This document shows, piece after piece, positions 46,856 to 60,922 of a DNA stretch of 64,000 nucleotides (position 1 is its first letter; each line of letters begins with the position of its first letter). Position numbers and translations under genes: made by a program. A model generated the notes under the pieces. It made no database searches, was not told the DNA's origin, and was given only the letters and a program-made list of their open reading frames with translations. The stretch lies in NCBI GenBank assembly GCA_001244265.2, contig CDLV01000009.1, positions 1,364,001-1,428,000 of the forward strand. The letters are read 5' to 3'. The stretch is from Microbotryum violaceum. Lineage: Eukaryota.

Positions 46856-48197
46856 TCAAAACCGAACCTTCCTCTTCCTAGCCGTATACTTTGAATCCCT
46901 CGGTACATCCGCCTTGCCTCGTTTGCGATACAACTCCTTCTTCCGTAAGATCCAATCCAAATTCTTCACCACACCTCCCTTCCTTCCCTTCCCACGGGAC
47001 TTGATCTTGAGGCGTTGACGTTGTTGTTCGAAGCCCACGCAGGAGGGGGTCTCGTCTGTTAGGGGTTCGGGCATCGCCGGTTTCGGTCCGGAGATAGGTT
47101 GGCCCGCGAAGAGGATGAGGTAGAATTTCTTTCTGTAAGGAGGCGCAAGGGTGGACGGGGTCAGTCTCAGGCATCCGTATTGACATAGGTTGTGAGTCTT
47201 GAGGGGCTGTACAACTTTTTGGACGAGTTGGGCTGTATTTGATAAAGAGATGGGGATGTGAACGAGGATCAGCGACGTAGTCTTTTCGTTTATTGTCCTA
47301 CAAAGCACTTTGCTCGCACTCACGTAATCCACACAAAGTCCTCCTCCGAACCCAGCCTTTGTCGCATACCCCATAATAAAGCTCGCCTGCTCGTCCGACT
47401 CGGGGTAGAATTGAAATACGGCTCGAGCACCTTTCTTGAGACACCCGAAAAGGTCGGTGAAGAAGCGAAGGAGACGCTGGGAAGGGGAATGGGATGTCGC
47501 GTCGGCGTTGCAGAGCCATTGCAGGACGGAGACGCTGGGGAAGGGAAGGTGGGAGTTAGGTGGGGTTCGTAGGGGAGGTGTTGGGGTGGGTGGGCAGGAC
47601 ATACGAGATCGCGCCGTCGAAGGAAGCGGGTCGGAAGGGAATTCCTTGACCGATGTCCGCGAGGAAGAGGTCCCCTTCGACTTCACGCTCTAAAGCGACC
47701 TCTGGGAGAGGTGAAAGGATGAAACGGATGAGTCGAATGTTTCTCGAGTCCAATCGCCCTAGGTTGTGTATGGCCTCGCCGACTTCTCCCACAAGTCCAG
47801 TCCACTTCCTCCAAGATCACACCCCGGGTTCGCACTTACCCAACATACCCCCACTGACATCCATCCCAACCCAATGATGTCCCTCCTCCGTCAAGATCTC
47901 GCCCGACAACCCCGATCCAGCTCCAATATCGAGCAAGTAAGCCTGCTTAGGAACGCTAGAAGGTTCGCCTTCTTCGTCAAAGTGTTCTTCGGTTGGACTA
48001 TGAACGTAGGAAGAACGGGTAAGCTCTTTCTTTCTTCGATGTTGGTGGAATGTGCGGTCTTACAGATCCAACAGTTCCAAACAACGATAAGTCATCTCGG
48101 CCTGGATCGATTGCACACGCGAGTTGGACGTGTACTTTTGCGCCTCCAAAGGGTTGTAGAACACCTCTGGGGGGGCGATGTGTTCGGGTCGCGACAT
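46856..48197 (-). CDS. BUD23: 18S rRNA guanine-N7 methyltransferase Bud23
   Basis: [98 protein letters not shown]. Confidence 0.96.
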
Positions 48198-48457
48198 GGT
48201 GAAGGGGGGTTGATGCGGTTCAAGTTAGTGTAGAAAGGGAAGAGAAGCTAGATCTACAAGGAGGTCACATTACGGGCTCTTTGTCTCTGTCTATCTCGCG
48301 CGCGCGCCGCGTGACAGCGCGTGACGATGACCTTAGCCTAGCTTGTCATCATTAGCTTGCGAAGTGCGGAGCTGTTGGCCTTTCGCACGCCGATCACCCC
48401 ATACATCGGCCGCTCAAGAGCCTACCGAAGAGGCTGCACCCACCACCACCCTTCATA

Positions 48458-50348: not shown

Positions 50349-53300
50349 CTAATGAAAACCCATCCCTCTCCTTTCCCGATCTGCGAAACCCCCTTGGCCT
50401 TGCCAGGAACCCACCAAACCAACGCCGGTCCCGGTGTCTTTTGAAATCGCCCAAGTCGTTAACGAGCCTAGGAAGGAACTTGGACCGTCTTTGGCGCTCG
50501 CTGGAACAGGAACGGCGATCATTGAGCTTGTCGTTATCGGCGTAGAGGCGGAAGGGGATGACGGCGAGCGGCGGATTTTAATGGGGATACTAGTGGGAGG
50601 GGGAATGATCGCCGGGAGACTTGGAACGGGAGGTATATCCTCTTCTCCTGAAGGATGAGGTGCAGAAACGCTTCTAAATTGACTTGTGGAACGTTGGGAA
50701 CGCAAGTTAGCCATTGAGGGTCGTCGACCGACGGGCGTGGTGGCGAGGAGCGAGTCCGTCAGTTGTTGTTTCAATGAATGGCGCGAACAACTTGCTCCAT
50801 CCGTGTCAGGGATACTGTTGGCGATGACGGGAATGGGTAGGGGCGTCGCGACAACTTGGCCCGAGGTCGAGTCACTCGAAAGAGCTAAAGTCGCGGGTGA
50901 AAGAATTCGATGATGAGGATTCGCATGCGCGACAAAAGTACTGCGGATCGACGAGTCCGAAAGTCCTCGAGGGCGGAGTTGGCGTTCCAACAGCGTCGGC
51001 ATTGGAGCGGCACCTTCTTCTTTCGGGCCGGGAGCATGAGGTATCGAGTCGAGTACAGCGTTGGTAGTACTTGACATGGCGGGACGGTAAGATGCGAGGA
51101 GACGGTTGAAAGGGTTGTATGAACCTGCGACCGAAGTTGATGTCGAGTTCGCTGGGTTGCCTCGAGAAAGGAGTCTCCATGGTTCCGAAGGTTTGGAAGA
51201 AGGTGGAGGCACGTTCGAAGCTCCCGCGAAGATGCTGTTGAGATCACGCTTGACCTGGGAGCCGGTGCGTCGTCCACTCGTCCCTTGAGCATGGGCGCTG
51301 ATCGCACTCGAGGGGGAAGCGTTGGCCTCCACGCCGGTCTCTTCTTCGCCAGGGCGATCAGTTTGAGCAGCGCGTCGCACGGCTCCCCCTTTGCCAAATT
51401 CGACTTCGACGGTCGCAGATGAGACGGCGCTAACGCCTGCTTGTTTTGGTGCGGGTCGGGTTGTAGGGATTGGGGCAGCAGGACTAGCCTTCCTTCCCGG
51501 AGCTGCCAGAGTAGGTGGTGCACCGGTACTCGCTGAGGCTTCACTGCCCGGCATCAGAGCTGAGGGGATGAACCGCGACAGAGGCGAGAGGAAGCTGCTG
51601 CTCGTAGGCGTCGCCAACCTGCCTTGCACGAGATCGATCGCGCTCGGGTCGTCCAATTCCCGCAGGTTCGTAGCGAGATGAGGTTCAACCTCGACCCTGT
51701 TGACCAGCGTCCGCAGTCGAGAGAGCTCGAACAAGAGGTCACGGAACAGCTTGACGAGTGCGACAAAGTCTCGGCGCAGGACCATCGATTCGGTCGAGGC
51801 AACGTCGCCCGGTGCTTTTGAAGCCATTGCATCCCTTCCGGCCCCGGATTGTTCCCGCTCTAGCACCCTTCTGAAATGGGCTCGTAGCTCTTCAATGTCG
51901 TGGACCTGGTGCATTCCATTCCTCGGAGCAAGTCAGCAAAATATTCTGCAGCGCGCTCTACGCAGCTCAACAGCTCACCGACTCACCAAAGTTTTCATGT
52001 TCGCCAACGCGACGTGTCGCACATCTCCCGAAAGGTGTTGTTTCTTGAGTCGATTCTCTTGCGACGCAATATCCGCGGCCTGTATCCGCGTAAACAATCG
52101 TGTCGCATGATCGATCAAGCCGCTCAAAGCTGCGGTTCGCATCTCCATCGACGACGTGGGCGCGAGATGGTCGGTTTCGGGTGAAGGGTCCGTGTCCGAG
52201 AGGTCAGAGACTGTTGTGTTCGAGCGTGGAAGGCCGCTCCCGAGCCGAGGTGAGACGCTGCGAGAGGACGATGTGAAGCTGCCCCGTCGCGGGATTGATG
52301 TCGTTGGGTAATAGAGTATAGGCACTGGTGCCGGCGAAGTCTGTGTTCCCGAGTCAACCAGGGCTGAACGACCGTCGGGCGATAACCCCAGCGTGCGCCT
52401 TCGTTTCGTCGGCGAAATCGGGGCCGAGGGTGTCGAGACCTCAGCAGGCGTCGAGGATCGATTCGTTCGCATGCGCGGCGAGTTGCGCGCCGTGGAGCTA
52501 TATTGGAAGGGAGCCGAGTCGTCCTCTAGTACTTGAGGAAACAGAGGTGGGCCCAGCGCGAGAGAAAGTGGTCGATGATGCCGCCGAGGTCGAACAAAGC
52601 CCGTTGTGTCCTCGAGATCGCTTCCGTTCATCGACAACGACGAGGGCGGTCGGTTCTCTTGCCCATATTCCATATTCGGCGAAGTCGGTGTCCCACCCAC
52701 CGACATACGTCGCGAGTTGATCATATTGCTCATGGAAGTGACGTCGATGCTCATCGCTCGTCGCGCGTGGTGTCGCCTTCCGATCGGAATCCGCGGCGTA
52801 GGCAAACCTTCGGCTGACAAGACCGCGCTCATCTGGTCGGTGCCGCTGAATCTCCGATTCGTGTTGCGCGACGTACTGTTGGCCAAAGGCGTGAAGTAGG
52901 AATGTCGAATGGGTTCATCTGGAGCGTGGACGGACCCGTCGCTGCATGTCCGCGACAGATCAATGGTGCGATGCGAGTGGGATGCGGTCGAACGATGCAA
53001 AGAGGTCGCCCCGGTCGATGACGAGGAGAACGGTAGCGATGATTCGAAATCCGAGAACGAGTGCGAGGCTGATTGGGACAGGGAAGGCGAGCTCAAGACC
53101 TCGGACATCAGGTTTGAGGACAGTTCCGTCGGAATCCTGTGGCCGTCGAACTCGCCCTCCTCATTCGGATCGTCCTCGGCATGGAAAGGCAATCGGGATA
53201 ACTCTTTCCCATCGCGTGCTGTGTCCAGCAGACTTTGGAGCTCTTGGCTTTCGGACCGGAGCATCCCGTTCTCCGAGACGAGGCCTTCGACGAGCTTGAG

Positions 53301-54305
53301 CAACTCGACGGCTTCCGGATTGGCCGCGACCTCGGTGCCGTCCGAGCCCAAGATGGTTTCCGTCGAGGAGGCAAACTTGGCTTTGGCTTTAGCCAACGCT
53401 TCATAGCTCTTGCGACTGCGTAAGACCGTGTTCTGCCTCATTTCTTCGAGGTCTTGGATCGCGCGCTTGAGCCGTTCCTCCATCTCGGCCACTCTATCCC
53501 CTGCCTTTTTGACCCTGCTCTCGGCGTGTGTGGCCCGTTTCCGCTCCGAGATGAGTTCCTGCAACGTGTCCTCGTGGGTACGAGTTAAGGAATTGAGGGA
53601 GGCCGAGGTCGCAATGAGTTTGCCTGCGTCCGACGAGAGTCGGGTGATGGTTTTGCGATCCTCTTCCAGCGAGACGAGCAGGGCCCGGTTGTTGGCTTCG
53701 GCTTGTTCGAGGTTGTTCACAGTCTCTTCGAGTCTCTGCATGGCGGCCAGGAAAACTCATGATCAGCGATTCGGCACCTTGCGCTCTCTCATGGTGCCAC
53801 CGAAGCCCAAGTGGGGGCGGACAGGAGAGGGCCTCCTCTTTTTCACCCCACGTTTGCCCGCCTCGAATTAGTAGTGGCACCGTGGGCTTACCCTTTGCAG
53901 CTGCTGAGCCTCCTTGACGGCCGTGGCCAGTCGATCGAGCATCTTTTGGTTCCCTGTCTCGGCTGTCGCCAACCGCTTCTCCAACCCCGCCTTTTCCTCC
54001 AACAAGGCCTGCCCGACTTGAGCGGCCAATCGCAAGTCGGCTTCGAGCGCGGTCATCATCTGCTGAGGCGACGACGAGCCCGAGCCCGAGCTGTTCTTGA
54101 TGATGTTCCATGAGAAACCCGTAGTGGTCGAAGTGGAGGAGGTGGTGGAGCTTGACCCGGTTGGTGCATCGTCGAAGCGTTCGCTCGAGCGTCGTTGTAT
54201 GCTACGCAATGCCGATCCGAGCTCGAGCGACGGTCCTCCAACCGGGGTCGTTGTGGCTGCCGGCGACAAGCGCGATTGAGGCGACGACGGCGGCACGTGG
54301 GCCAT
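50349..54305 (-). CDS. Large uncharacterised protein with an N-terminal coiled coil (CC1-box-like motif) and long disordered regions
   Basis: Three long exons (within ORFs 53868-54359, 51975-53741 and 50349-51914) joined by GT-AG introns. Contains LEADLRLAAQVGQALLEEK followed by heptad-rich sequence. Confidence 0.8.
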
Positions 54306-55001
54306 ACCCGAGGGGGCTAGGACCATGCAACGCGTCGAGAGCGGAAGGAGATCGGCCAACCACTAGGCGCTAGTACTCGTGATGCGGGGTTGCTTGTTGT
54401 GTGGATCGTCGGTCTAAGTGGGGGCTGAAGTAAGCTTGCGAAGAGGGGGGTCGGACGGCCGCGTCGCGCTTGACCGGCTGTATTTTGTCGATAGTGTCGC
54501 GACGGTGACCGGTGAGCCGGTGAGCGACAGCGCCGCCCGTCCGTTGCGCGGTTTGCGCGCGTCCGTTCCATTCTTCTAACTCCCAAAAAGGCGATTGCGC
54601 GAACACCATCGAGTTCCCATTCCGAGCCGAAGGATTCGGGACCACTGATGAGTCATTCAGAGTCTGCTGATTGCACGCTAGCTAGACTGCAACAAGCTCA
54701 GAGTCACAGCTAGGGGAAAACCGAACGCATCACGTGATCCACGAGGCTACCACGATCGTCCGTCGTCTGACTCGACGTTAAGCGCGTCAAACGTTGAACG
54801 TTGAGGATCAAGATAGGTAATGTCTGTTACAGAAACACGAAGGCGCAAGGGCAGAACCAGCAAAACGAAATAAGAATATACGACAGAGCACTATGTATAT
54901 ATGTACAATAAACACATAGAACAGTTAGGGGGAACAGAAAGGAGGAGATGTGAAGAGATCGAGCAATCGATCACTCGTAGTTCCTCCGCCTCGTCGAAGC
55001 A

Positions 55002-58000
55002 CTACTGTTCCAGCCCGCGGAGGAAGCGCTCGATCGTAGCGTCGGTACCGTCGTCGAATGCGACAGCGATGATGCCTTGTACAGCGAATCGATACCGACG
55101 GTTGTAGGACTCGAGCTGAGATTAGCGCTCCCCATACCTCGTTGGTAAGCCGAGAGCGTCGGCGTCGTCCCGCTCGAAGGAAGTACGTTCGCGAGACGAG
55201 ATTCTTGCATGCTTCTCGGTCGATCGTTGCGTGCGGAGGGGTAGACGAGTTTTTCGCTATGATCCGAGGCGGAGATGATGGTTATTTCGCGTTCCATCTT
55301 TGCTTTTTGCCGCTGCAGCTCGGCGTTTTCCTTCAGGGTCGTCGTCAGGAGCGTTTGCTGTCGTGAGATCTCGTTCCGCAGGCGTGTCTGCAATAACGGG
55401 CGGGTCGAGCGGTCAGCGGCCTGGAAGAAAAGCAACATGAAGTCTCAAAACAACTCACGACGTTCAACTCAGCTAATTCGCGCAACTTCTTCTCACTCTC
55501 GTACTCGTCCTTGAGGCGATCAGCTGACGTGTCGCGCACCGGTTTGTTGGCCCACGCCTGTCGTCGTTCCGTCTCTCGCTCATGTTGCATATCCTCCACA
55601 GTCTGCGTCAACGTGGCCCTCGCGCGTTCCAGCGTACGCACATACGCATCCCGTTTCTCGCGATCGGCTCGCATGCGATCCATATCGAGGTTCTGCAAGC
55701 GTTGCGCCTCTTCGAGCACTCGGATATGTTCGACGACGGTTCGACCGGCCTTGTCCTCGGCGACGACGAGACGAGCATGCGTCGCGGCGAGCTCGCTGCG
55801 CAGGTCACCGTTAATCTTGTCCAAGTCGGCGAGGACGACGTGTTGTTGCTCGATCTGGTCCTCGAGCTTCCGTCGAAGAGAGGTCTGCGTCTCTTGTTCC
55901 TTGCGCATCGCCTCGAGTGCTTGCTGAAGCTGAGCAACCTCCCGACGCGCCGATCCCGTTTCGCGTTGAGCGGTGACGCTGGCTTCTTCGGCTTCGGTGC
56001 ATCGACTCTGGGCCGAAGCGAGGTCGCGCTCCCATTTCTCCCGCTCCTTGAGCATCGACTCGGCAGCCTTGGTGCGCATCAACTCGATCTCGAGGTCATG
56101 AGCCTGTTGCGCGCGTTCGAGATCGGCCGTCCGAGCCTCGAGTTCCGCAACGCGACTTGCACTCGCTCGTGCCGCTCTTTCCAAATCCGTCTTGTGCGAA
56201 CGAAGATCCAACGCCTCTTTGCGTGCTGCATCAGTGTCCTTCCGTAGCCGGGCCAAATCACTAGCGGATTCGCGTTGAAGAGAGCGCAATTCGTTCGTCG
56301 TCTTGGAGACTTGCAAGCGCAAATCTTGTACTTCGGCTTCCTTGATCTGGTTCAGCTCGGCCGTGCGTTGATGATCCGAGGACTTCTCATCGAGCAAATT
56401 TTTGAGCGTCAGGACGTCGGTGGCAGCTCTTGACTCGGCGGAACGGGAACTCTCGAGAGCGCGGGTCTGCTCAGCGAGGTCCTTAGTCAAGCTCGAGACG
56501 CGCAGCTCGAGTTCTCGGACTTGAGTCATCGCCGCTTCGCTCTTCTTGACGATGTAAGCGTGCTCTGCAGAGAAGAACACTGCGTCAGCAAAATGTCATC
56601 TGAATCAATACCACAAGCTGACCACACTCACCCGACGAGATACGAGCCAGCTCGCTCTCCTTTGCCTTGACTCCTGCCTCGACCTCCCGCTTCTGATTCT
56701 GCATCACCACAGCATGCTCTTTCGCCGCTCTCATCTCCCCCTCAAGCGCAACAAATTTTTGCCTCGCCTCCGTCGAAGCCTTGGTCTCCATCGCCAACCT
56801 CGATGTCAATCCCACAATCGAAGCATTCAACCTCTCCTGTTCGCGTTGTCGATCTTGCTTCAGTTCGACGAGTTGGCGTTGCAAATCGCTGGCCTTTGAA
56901 GCCGCCTCTTGTCGATCCTTCTTGACCGCCTCCCATTCAGCGGTCTTGACGGACGTTTGACTCGCCCATTCATGTTCCTTGGCCTTCCAAGCGGCCTGTT
57001 CAGACTGCAATGTCTCGAGCAACTTGTTTTGATTCCCATACGCGGCATTGAGTTCCCCCACGCGTTGCTCGGCTTGAGTCTTGGCCACCATCGCTCGTTC
57101 GAGCTGTCGATCGATCGTATCGATCTCCACGTCCGCTGCGGCCAAAGCTTCTTGCAGCTTGATTTCCCTCTCCTTCGATCGTTGAAGTTGCAACTCTCGA
57201 TCTTCGACGGCCAAGCGTTCATTCTGTAACGCCGCTTCCGTCTTCTTGTGCTCCACCTTGAGACGACGCTGAGCTTCTTCCAACCTTTCCCTCTCTTGCA
57301 AAGCCTTAACCGCCTCCTCCTTAGTCTTGCTCAACTCCTCCTCCTTCCTCCTCATCTCATCATCACTCCTAGCAGCCGCCAACAGAGGCCGTACGCGTTG
57401 AAACAAAGCCCACCAAGGCCAAGCCCTCAACTCGTTATAGATCCTCGCGTTCCTCTGAATCGTCCTCACCGCATTCGCGCGGTTCAAAACTTTGTTCGCT
57501 TGGCGTTGAACGATGAAGCGACGACAGGTCGCTTGGATGCGAGTGACGACGCCGGAAAGATATTCGTCGCGACGTTCTTCGAGTTCGGCGAGGATCCCGG
57601 CTTTGAAGAATACTTTGGTCAAACCGAGACGGTAGGATTCGGGACTGAGCTGTAGATGGTGCAGGATTGTTTGGGACGCTTGTCCGCCATCGAAGAAACC
57701 TTTGGGGATCAAACCTGGGGCCAGGAGTTCGAAGCGACGGCGAAATTCGGAAAAGGGGAGACGATTGGGGTAGCCTAATCGGGCAATACGAATCCCTTCG
57801 AGCACACCGTTGCAACGCAGTTGATCGAGCACGAGGGGGACATCGATTTGTCCGGGGGCTTTGGCGAGGTTGGGGACGATGCAACGGATGAAATGGGGTT
57901 GCGTCTCCTTCAATTGAGCCATCAGGTTCGCCAATTGTTCCTTGTGCCTTTGACCGACGGTCCTGAACGCTCCCTTTCGAGCTCGACTCCTCGGCGCCAG

Positions 58001-60922
58001 ATCACCCGCACCACCTCCCCCGGCAATTTCGGCTTCGGCGTACTCAGCAAACAGTTCGCCAACGTACGCGTCCGACGAGTGGGACAAGAGCGAAGTGATG
58101 TTGTCGTTGAGGGGGTCGCGGTTCTTTTCGAGCCAGCCTTCGGTACGGTATTCGACTTTGCCGGCGTAGTGGGAGACAGTGAATCCTTGTTCAATACGAG
58201 AGGGGGCGAACTTGGTGTATTGCGTCGAGATGGGTTTTTGCGTCGCCAGTTCGGTCATCTTGTCCGTGAACTAACGTGCATCGACGGGGTTCATCAGTGT
58301 CTACCGCAAGAAACATATTCACAATCCGGCTCGACTCACCGACTTGTCACTAGCCTTGGGCATAATGGACGCATCATCCAAGCAACTCAAAATACCCATC
58401 GGGTTGTTGGACTCGATCAAATCGATCGTCGGCTGAAGCTCCAACCCAAAATTGACGAATTCCCACGCGATCTCCTCACGCGAATATTCATCTTGCTCGA
58501 GTACGAACATGTGGTGGTTGAAGAATTGTTGGAGTTTCTGAAGAGGACATCAAAAAAGCATTTAAGGATCAGCCGGCTTGAGTTTCCAGACTTGCATGCT
58601 TTGCATCTGCGCACCTCGTTGGTCAAGTTGATGCAAAGCTGTTCGAAACCGTTCGTCTCGAAGATCTCAAACCCCGCAATATCCAACACCCCAATGAAAG
58701 TCTTCGTCGAAGGTCTGCCCAGTGCAGCGTTAATCTTCTCGACCATCGCCCCAAAGTTCTTCTCGTACAAAGCCTTGCTCAATGCCGCGATTTCATCGAC
58801 GACTTGTTTCGCCGACCGAGCTTGGACGACCCATTCCCTCCCAGCTTTGACTTTAGGTCTCACGAGCGCGTTCATGAAAGGCGTTTCGTCGAGTCCGAGG
58901 AGGAAGCAGACCTTCTCGAGTTGAGTTCGATCAACGAGATGGGCCTGATCCGTACCTCCGATTTGAATGTTGCCCAAATGCAAGATCGCTGCGATGATAC
59001 GGAAGAGACGAAGTTGTTCGTCGTCGGAGAAGCCAACGGTTTCAAGAGCTTTGCGTAAAAGTCTCCATTCTTGCTTATCGTCCATGCCATCGACGTCTTG
59101 ACGTCCTCCTGCGAGGTAAACGTAATCCTTCGATTGACCGGTCAAGAGCAACTGTTGACGCAAGCCCGAGTCGGCGCCTCGCAAGAGTTGAAAGAAAATG
59201 TGGAAGGAGCGTTCCTTATCGCAGCGGGAGGTGACGCGCGATTTCTCTAAGAGGTACCAGTCGATGTTGGCCCCCGCGATCGCGCCAATCGAGTTGAAAA
59301 AGATGCGCACGAACTTGCCCTGGGAGCGACAGAAATACAAGAAACATGGGTCATTCGTTTCGCTGATGCGGTCTGATACAATCTCGGACTCACGAAGCGT
59401 GACGAATTGTTATTTTTGACCGTTTGCGCATTACCAAACGCCTCCAAGATCGGATTCGCCTCCAATATTTGCCTTTCCAATTGGCCCAGTTTCTTACCCG
59501 TGGCTTGGTCGACCGTTCGGGATTCAACTTGGGCTTGTCGAGCCAAGAGGTCGAAGGAGGAGGAAGAGGGTAAAGGGTCCGCAGCGATCGCGGCGAGGTA
59601 TTGGATTACTTTCTTGGTGTTTTCCGTTTTACCGGCACCGGATTCTCCACTGTGGGCAGAGGGAATGGGGGGATGGTCAGCATTTTGGGGTCTGATAGTC
59701 TCTCCATCGGGACTCGATACTTACGTGACGAGGACACTTTGAGATTGATCCCGATGGGCGATCATGTTCTGCCATGCCTTTTCGGCGACGGCAAACACAT
59801 GAGGCGGGTTCTGATCCCTTCGGCGGTTCTTGTAGCCTGCAGCGTACAATCCGATGGGTGAGTATCGTTTCTAGATTCATCCTCTACGATAGGATGATTA
59901 CCTACTCTCGACAATCTTGGGTGTATAGATCGTTAACGGCCGATACGGATTGACCGCGACCAAGAACAAGCCCGAATAAGTCTGTCCATCGCGAGGTTTC
60001 AAGAGAACTCGTCAGCCGAAGCTCTTTGATTCCGCTCAACTCAGTAAGCGTTTGCGTTTCATGACAACCCGGACGGACGTAGATGGAATCGCTCATGTAG
60101 CGCGTGCGGAGGTTGTGTACTACGCTCGCTTCGTTGAGGTAGGTCAAGTCGGCGATATCGTCCGCGCCTTCGAACGTCGGGGGGTTCACGCGCGAGAGAT
60201 CCAGGGAGGGAATTTGGCGCACCTGAGTACAACAAAGGGCGGGGATCTATCAGTAGCTGTTTCGGATCATCTGAATGTGGTGTGGAGTAGACATACTGCT
60301 TCGCCCGAATCGATCGCGACAGCCGAGACCCCGTCCTCATCCTTGATGACCCATCCAGCGACGTATCCGTGCGTCGCGTCCGCCACCCAGACCCTGCACA
60401 CACACACGACGAAAGTCGCAGAAGCCAAGCACGTGTCAGTTAGCACCACTCCATTGTAACCACTATTTTGGTCGTCTTGTCGCATGTGATTGGTGTCCAA
60501 GGGCCGACAAGGACGCGTCTACTTCCGCAGTTGGACCCCCTTGCCTTCCAGCATGAGCAGGAGACTCATTCAACCCTCGAGCGGCCGACGTCCCCCGCCG
60601 GCACGCGTCCGAGTGGACCTTCGACCCGTGCTTCCAAGCATCCATCAGATACATGAACAACACGTTCCTTTCAACCCATCCCACCCGTACACCTCTGTTT
60701 CCCCCCGCAGATCCCAGTCCCATCCAATCCAATTCCCCGCGCAAGGTCCTCGTCCCCATCCGTCCGTCCGTTCCAATTGCGCACCCACAAAGCACACGTG
60801 AACCATCGGACCGGCACGACACAGCTGCTGCTGACATACCATCTCCTCGAATTCCACTGGGCGATCGCCGCCGCATCAGCAGCCACGTCCTGACCTTGAC
60901 CTCTTCTTGAAGTCGTTGGCAT
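55002..60922 (-). CDS. Type II myosin heavy chain (SH3-like N-terminus, motor domain, IQ region, coiled-coil tail)
   Basis: [90 protein letters not shown]; class-II signature [14 protein letters not shown]; long coiled coil. The last exon is inferred (..[10 protein letters not shown]). Confidence 0.93.

Follow-up and report, generated by a model that had tools for sequence, protein, structure and literature searches.

The window analysed here is a stretch of 64,000 nucleotides from Microbotryum violaceum (assembly GCA_001244265.2, contig CDLV01000009.1, positions 1,364,001 to 1,428,000 of the forward strand). Its reverse strand contains a gene of three exons (54326-53892, 53735-51987 and 51905-50349). 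The spliced product comprises 1246 amino acids and is identical to the public record MVLG_06576. The succession of a CC1-box-like segment, a long coiled coil and a Spindly-like motif suggests that this protein is probably a dimeric dynein-dynactin cargo adaptor of the CC1-box type in basidiomycetes. The gene and the features on which this interpretation is based are as follows (positions in the window, minus strand throughout).

53892..54326 (-): exon 1, residues 1-145
51987..53735 (-): exon 2, residues 146-728
50349..51905 (-): exon 3, residues 729-1246 and the stop codon
53997..54038 (-): CC1-box-like segment, residues 97-110, with AAQVG at 54012-54026
53376..54065 (-): long first coiled-coil helix, approximately residues 88-265, spanning intron 1
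53205..53315 (-): second, short coil past a break, residues 286-322
53097..53111 (-): Spindly-like motif LMSEV, residues 354-358, in a disordered linker
52332..52355 (-): putative LC8 (DYNLL)-type TQT site, residues 606-613, with Asp at -4

Both splice joints are supported by contigs of two sequencing runs (X2 and X4), which lack exactly 156 and 81 nucleotides with CT..AC ends. These runs belong to one study, are RNA by the guess of the tool and are 90-95% alike to the gene; four of the eleven listed runs were compared. Run X6 (near-identical, kind not on record), which may be the source of this DNA, spans the region as a single piece that has no joint. In the public model of the M. silenes-dioicae ortholog (P0001, 1254 amino acids), additional residues are present at intron 2 (window 51906-51986). 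Since the spliced contigs and the ortholog alignments favour the 81-base form of this intron, we prefer it over the M. silenes-dioicae model.

The initial annotation had described an AAxxG sequence, a long coil starting there and an LMSEV sequence beyond the coil, about 250 residues downstream. All of this was found in the spliced protein: 54012-54026 (-) translates to AAQVG from residue 101, 53097-53111 (-) to LMSEV from residue 354, and the two are 253 residues apart. The arrangement also agrees with the AlphaFold model of the Leucosporidium ortholog (P0003), in which a helix (55-231), a break and a shorter helix (252-293) are followed by disorder, a helical bundle (661-790) and disorder again.

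A search with exon 2 yielded 30 relatives from Microbotryomycetes. A profile built from 9 of these 30 matched 473 cluster representatives at E<=0.001, and the family members were drawn from the best 150 of the 473. Among these best 150 the family is present in all three basidiomycete subphyla. Names were looked up for 20 of them and included Atractiella and Mixia in Pucciniomycotina, Violaceomyces, Ceraceosorus, Sporisorium and Tilletia in Ustilaginomycotina, and Calocera, Cantharellus, Phlebopus, Tulasnella, Kwoniella and Naganishia in Agaricomycotina, where the placement of the genera in subphyla is the one we take to be current. The remaining members were assigned to groups by similarity. 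In a tree of 100 rows and 587 columns these groups reappeared unmixed, with support of 1.0 for Ustilaginomycotina and 0.59 for Agaricomycotina, and with Sporidiobolales nested within Pucciniomycotina (0.99). All family counts given here are counts of sequences and not of independent events. Overall identity across the three subphyla is about 25-30%. All named members, including that of U. maydis (UMAG_12309), are annotated as hypothetical, the exceptions being a few models that are merged with adjacent genes. Searches for UMAG_12309, um12309 or MVLG_06576 yielded no paper on the family in the literature covered, most subscription papers being outside its reach. The same literature described no fungal CC1-box protein in the portions of the sources available; figures and bioRxiv supplements with adaptor motif alignments, which could include fungal sequences, were outside its scope. 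A Mucoromycota cluster of 62 hypothetical proteins of 354 amino acids reached an ESM Atlas score of 0.86 with residues 85-365 of the M. silenes-dioicae ortholog. This value is below 0.9 and provides a lead for CC1-like proteins in early-branching fungi.

Taken alone, both motifs occur at chance level. In the 19,975 residues of the six-frame open reading frames of at least 150 amino acids in the window, AAxxG is found 11 times and LxxE 81 times, and the protein itself contains two and eight copies, respectively. What goes beyond chance is the conservation of the two motifs, not their bare presence. The pattern L-x-L-[AS][AG]-x-x-G-x-x-L-L is present within the first 320 residues of 93 of the 110 members with at least 800 amino acids. 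In a 100-row alignment (A6), Gly at position 105 and Leu at position 108 are found in all 90 rows that have a residue there, and L109 (89/90), L98 (88/89), L100 (88/90) and A102 (87/90) are conserved nearly as well; five columns of the CC1 segment are the most conserved of residues 90-324. A101 occupies heptad position d and G105 position a, and therefore small residues fill the core of the coil. The box thus lies at the start of the first coiled coil with small residues in its core, and its family form is [SA]AxxG.

The distance to the second motif is also typical of an adaptor. The spacing between CC1 box and Spindly motif averages 260 residues, with breaks in the coil allowed, and extends from A23/A24 to F258 in Spindly and from A43/A44 to residues 336-340 in BICD2 (PMC5379953). 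With a spacing of 253 residues and the helices seen in the ortholog model, the window protein has a coil within the range of about 200-260 residues between the motifs, and its spacing falls between those of Spindly and BICD2. The consensus of the Spindly motif is given as JxxE-phi beyond a flexible linker (10.64898/2026.04.25.720804). This pattern occurs 38-130 residues past the coil anchor in 35 of 91 anchored members, compared with 6.5 in shuffled sequences. For counts by lineage a wider search interval and 86 grouped members were used. JxxE-phi is present in 7 of 10 Pucciniomycotina other than Sporidiobolales (1.0 expected), the three misses reading LLADV, LQSEG and LASEG, and in 20 of 28 Ustilaginomycotina (3.7 expected), where no other island of conservation exists in the linker. 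LMSEV itself is seen in Atractiella, at +250. Hence JxxE-phi follows the coil in the window protein, but not in the family as a whole.

A site of the LC8 type, which the initial annotation did not mention, is a further putative element of a family that is broader than was recognized there. All 30 close relatives retain the TQT of positions 609-611. It is part of DSGTQTS (606-612), with a polar residue at -4, and lies in a region with pLDDT (predicted local distance difference test) below 50 in the ortholog model. Members of three groups carry the form [TV]QT[DESTI] in their linker at frequencies of 10/10, 23/23 and 23/25 (0.3, 0.6 and 0.6 expected), i.e. it is present in 56 of 58 Pucciniomycotina and Agaricomycotina compared with 1.5 expected. 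In Agaricomycotina the site has the form RGVQT(D/E), which comes close to the optimum from phage display cited in PMC6607443; according to the same source, many TQT peptides do not bind LC8.

Comparison of profiles with animal adaptors gave matches in the region of the CC1 box. When a profile of 47 family members was run against 177,635 PDB sequences, BICDR1 ranked second and third (E=0.019 and 0.021), with an alignment that begins in register at its CC1 box, among 33 matches at E<=10 that are mostly generic coils. Residues 97-110 are identical to BICDR1 at 10 of 14 positions, which by composition corresponds to about 7e-9 per position for a template picked after the fact. HAP1_N (PF04849) was matched by 9 of 44 diverse members and is tied with NYD-SP28_assoc as the most frequent family, the best match (E 9.1e-5) being below the cut-off; residues 95-134 in exon 1 match HAP1_N profile positions 77-116 (E=0.045), and the window protein reaches 13.4 bits against a family cut-off of 33.9. 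A profile of the close relatives (A1) had no PDB match at E<=10, and the 59-residue CC1 segment alone had one, which is unrelated. Only generic coil families were found in a Pfam scan of the 30 close relatives, and the ESM Atlas contained no named family at a score of at least 0.9. A HAP1_N search of the own genome gave three generic coil matches under the cut-off and missed this gene, and is hence uninformative on paralogs. The layout is like that of BICDR, TRAK and Spindly, whereas membership of these families is not supported by the profile scores. The motif that the family has in common with HAP1, TRAK and BICD may reflect homology or convergence.

The putative partners are encoded in the same genome. 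The dynein light intermediate chain (LIC), on contig C18, has a C-terminal FF helix, the residues F625 and F626 of which are invariant in all 40 fungal LICs aligned (from 65 matches). LC8 and p25 are also encoded, and Hook is a separate gene on contig C12. A complex prediction with two copies of residues 84-160 and a 37-residue LIC segment reached a score of 0.39, compared with 0.02 for the best of three controls; the runs agree in at least 77% of contacts, and the pLDDT of the partner is at least 60. In a calibration without peptides, 51 of 78 solved complexes attained the mark that was applied here to a prediction without alignments, as did 2 of 108 mismatches. Among scores <=0.60, it was reached by only 5 of the 78 solved complexes and by all 4 passing mismatches of 180. 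Complexes like that of CC1 box and LIC helix have already been solved, and the pass at 0.39 may therefore reflect likeness only and not binding. The prediction lends weak support to binding of the LIC helix by the CC1 segment.

In the mechanism that we propose, residues 88-322 would form a parallel coiled coil in which the small core residues A/S101, A102 and G105 leave a cleft for the FF helix of LIC. The broken coil of 230 residues would lie along dynactin, and LMSEV would contact p25 at the pointed end where it is kept and be dispensable elsewhere. LC8 could bind the TQT site and thereby pair the two disordered chains, and the helical bundle and the motifs of the tail may bind a cargo receptor. 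Judging from TRAK1, the CC1 box may stay covered by the N-terminal helix as long as no cargo is bound. The features of the N-terminus and the tail are listed below.

54174..54227 (-): short helix near the N-terminus, residues 34-51, corresponding to helix 19-36 of the ortholog model; motif in 25/30 Microbotryomycetes-level matches
51645..52136 (-): conserved helical bundle, residues 679-815, spanning intron 2; candidate partner-binding domain
51393..51443 (-): conserved stretch of small residues with TVEVEFG at its end, residues 883-899; first part of the two-part motif in the tail; pattern in 78/100
51222..51251 (-): conserved LxxIFAG, residues 947-956; second part of the two-part motif in the tail; pattern in 72/100
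50886..50993 (-): strongly conserved tail motif around RGLSDSSI, residues 1033-1068; pattern in 87/100

About 20-45 residues before the CC1 box, a segment of the form CC[CS]x3-9C is present in 22 of 25 Agaricomycotina, 27 of 28 Ustilaginomycotina and none of 33 Pucciniomycotina (orthologs P0119-P0262). This segment may form a metal site that bridges the dimer; in the window protein the short helix takes its place. Basic motifs ending in Ser (RRAMSID and RRHHRPLSL) are kept in Microbotryomycetes at residues 466-476 and 527-545 of exon 2; presumably they resemble kinase or 14-3-3 sites. The product of the gene upstream (window 55345-58270 (-) and upstream) is a myosin heavy chain (Myosin_head E=1.6e-61) whose tail forms a long coiled coil; we take it to be of the myosin II type. 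Some Ustilaginaceae models (P0246, P0281) are fused with the ESCRT-III gene DID2/Snf7 and are probably annotation joins of adjoining genes. Synteny gave no lead: myosin II adjoins here and DID2 in the fused Ustilaginaceae models. Short frames at 47817-48247 (-) resemble the start of a methyltransferase gene, presumably of a Bud23-type rRNA methyltransferase.

Several observations weigh against a role as activating adaptor. The first position of AAxxG is Ser in 53 and Ala in 38 of 91 anchored members (48 and 38 rows at position 101 of A6). The segment is kept across Basidiomycota, but exact AAxxG is a minority form. JxxE-phi is found in 10 of 25 Agaricomycotina (4.0 expected) and in 1 of 23 Sporidiobolales (1.9 expected), i.e. 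it is absent from 22 of the 23, and in U. maydis the Spindly-like site reads LHKDL at +291. Loss of p25 does not appear to explain the loss of the motif in Sporidiobolales, since one row (supplement 2, row 764) of PMC5309816, taken without its scale legend, gives S. roseus the top value of 1 for p25 and U. maydis 0.25, like yeasts. In the text and supplements of PMC3583065 that were searched for co-loss with p25, Sporidiobolales are not named. A QxxH/Y (HBS1/CC2) box about 30 residues past the CC1 box is absent from the window protein, and a match of any kind at +20..+70 is seen in 12 of 86 members. Among animal adaptors, only some use QxxH/Y (10.64898/2026.04.25.720804). Animal adaptors are mostly acidic in the corresponding coil regions (same source), whereas the coil is not net acidic here, with 13 acidic and 12 basic residues in segment 110-180 and 14 and 17 in 180-262. 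In a check for acidic HBS1/HBS2/HBS3 sites, LEEDR at 168-172 was found conserved in Microbotryomycetes. The BICDR1 and HAP1_N matches are not significant and carry a coiled-coil bias. Finally, the LC8-type site is present in none of the 28 Ustilaginomycotina, and many LC8 partners are unrelated to dynein (PMC6607443).

Of the adaptor proposed in the initial annotation, the half that concerns the CC1 box is well supported by conservation across Basidiomycota, the in-register BICDR1 match, the HAP1_N matches below cut-off and the weak complex prediction. The half that concerns the Spindly motif is supported in non-Sporidiobolales Pucciniomycotina and in Ustilaginomycotina, but the motif is lost in Sporidiobolales, weak in Agaricomycotina and degenerate in U. 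maydis. The protein could instead bind LIC by its CC1 box as a tether or regulator and not activate processive movement, e.g. by anchoring or sequestering dynein at an organelle, the cortex or the spindle pole body. Such a role would explain a nearly invariant LIC-facing motif next to a dynactin-facing motif that is lost or degenerate in whole clades, and the missing QxxH/Y and the non-acidic coil fit it as well. Yet JIP3 can function in the absence of its Spindly motif, HBS1 shows wide sequence variation, and the sites with which dynein reads HBS1-3 lack conservation in A. nidulans (10.64898/2026.04.25.720804). Since coil length and spacing also suit an activating adaptor, we consider a pure tether unlikely.

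A coiled-coil scaffold unrelated to dynein appears unlikely to a similar degree. Its cleft would hold another amphipathic helix, such as the own N-terminal helix or the Cys-rich segment, and LC8 would act as a general dimerizer. The lack of a significant sequence match to any adaptor, the diversity of LC8 partners (PMC6607443) and the conserved helix or Cys-rich segment (22/25 and 27/28) directly upstream of the box are in line with such a scaffold. However, the genuine CC1 box of TRAK1 is also covered by its own helices in AF2 models (10.64898/2026.04.25.720804). In addition, a CC1-like box, a coil of the right length and a Spindly-like motif occur together in the correct order, and the last is the only conserved linker island in Ustilaginomycotina. 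That both motifs are chance matches in an ordinary coiled-coil protein is highly improbable: the bare patterns are common, with two AAxxG and eight LxxE in this protein alone, but the core Gly is invariant in 90/90 rows from three subphyla at about 25-30% overall identity, and the Spindly-like motif exceeds its expectation (35/91 compared with 6.5).

A CC1-box-type adaptor as favoured here resembles several known proteins in part. With BICDR1 (BICDL1) and BICD2 the family has in common an N-terminal CC1 box in register, a long coil and L-phi-x-E-phi 250-300 residues further on (LLSEL at 336-340 in BICD2). Unlike in these, its coil is broken and not continuous, Ser often replaces the first Ala, QxxH/Y is lacking, a long disordered middle with an LC8-type site follows, and the tail consists of a bundle and linear motifs without a detected BICD match. 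TRAK1 and HAP1 are similar in the broken coil, in the helix upstream of the box and in HAP1_N as a tied most frequent Pfam match, but the family lacks QxxH and matched no Milton/TRAK C-terminal family. The spacing between CC1 box and Spindly motif in Spindly (SPDL1) is about 235, compared with 253 here. The window protein differs from Spindly in having no CC2 box and no CAAX end (its C-terminus is GMGFH), and the motif that defines Spindly is lost in whole clades of the family. Like HookA/Hok1 and Num1, which are coiled-coil linkers of fungal dynein (PMC7649786), the protein would connect by a coiled coil; it has no Hook domain, and no Hook or Num1-associated family is among the Pfam matches listed.

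For the tail, a more specific partner can be considered. The bundle is modelled at a pLDDT of about 90. Foldseek found no match at E<=0.001 for either the full ortholog model or a tail-only model, and VIA-align matched only generic helical bundles to the two models (best Z 9.3 and 10.3, where ordinary bundles reach about 13 with this tool). Vac17, the Myo2-Vac8 vacuole adaptor of S. cerevisiae, starts with a three-helix bundle (residues 1-109; 10.1101/2025.03.24.645041) and binds Vac8 via an extended stretch (295-308) and a short helix (332-340) with a disordered linker between them (PMC10161063). The likeness is one of layout only: bundle, disorder, extended stretch and short hydrophobic helix correspond to residues 679-815, 883-899 and 947-956. 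The linker within the two-part motif has 30-76 residues in the family and about 20 in Vac17, and Vac17 (423 amino acids) has no CC1 box or long coil before its bundle. Vac17 (PF17321) is not among the Pfam matches of 44 full members (first 25 of 129 families), 32 tail fragments or 14 segments, nor was it found in the PDB profile searches; the filters of HMMER drop weak matches. A PF17321 search of the own genome gave no candidate at first look. We presume some likeness of the bundle helices to Vac17, which Pfam and PDB profiles do not detect. Vac8 is encoded in the genome, as are two loci with a DIL domain. It is possible, though doubtful, that the family represents a long ancestral vacuole adaptor, in which a CC1-box/Spindly module of the animal type activates dynein-dynactin, LC8 clamps the linker, and a tail like that of Vac17 attaches to Vac8 and perhaps also to myosin V. 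If so, vacuoles would be passed between microtubule-based and actin-based motors by a single protein, the Vac17 of yeast would be the tail remaining after loss of the dynein half, and the class of CC1-box adaptors would be placed in fungi.

Work on CC1-box adaptors has been done in animals. In PMC7649786, Hook and Num1 are the dynein adaptors named for fungi, and secretory vesicles of A. nidulans need p25 while their adaptor is described as not yet identified (PMC5385943). Further fungal adaptors are therefore to be expected, and the family may supply a connection that has been missing between dynein and cargo in fungi. Its member UMAG_12309 makes the question testable in U. maydis, which is a standard organism for work on dynein transport. 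The Spindly-like motif has been lost naturally in one clade and the LC8-type site in another, and these losses could serve as ready comparisons for the contacts that fungal dynein needs.

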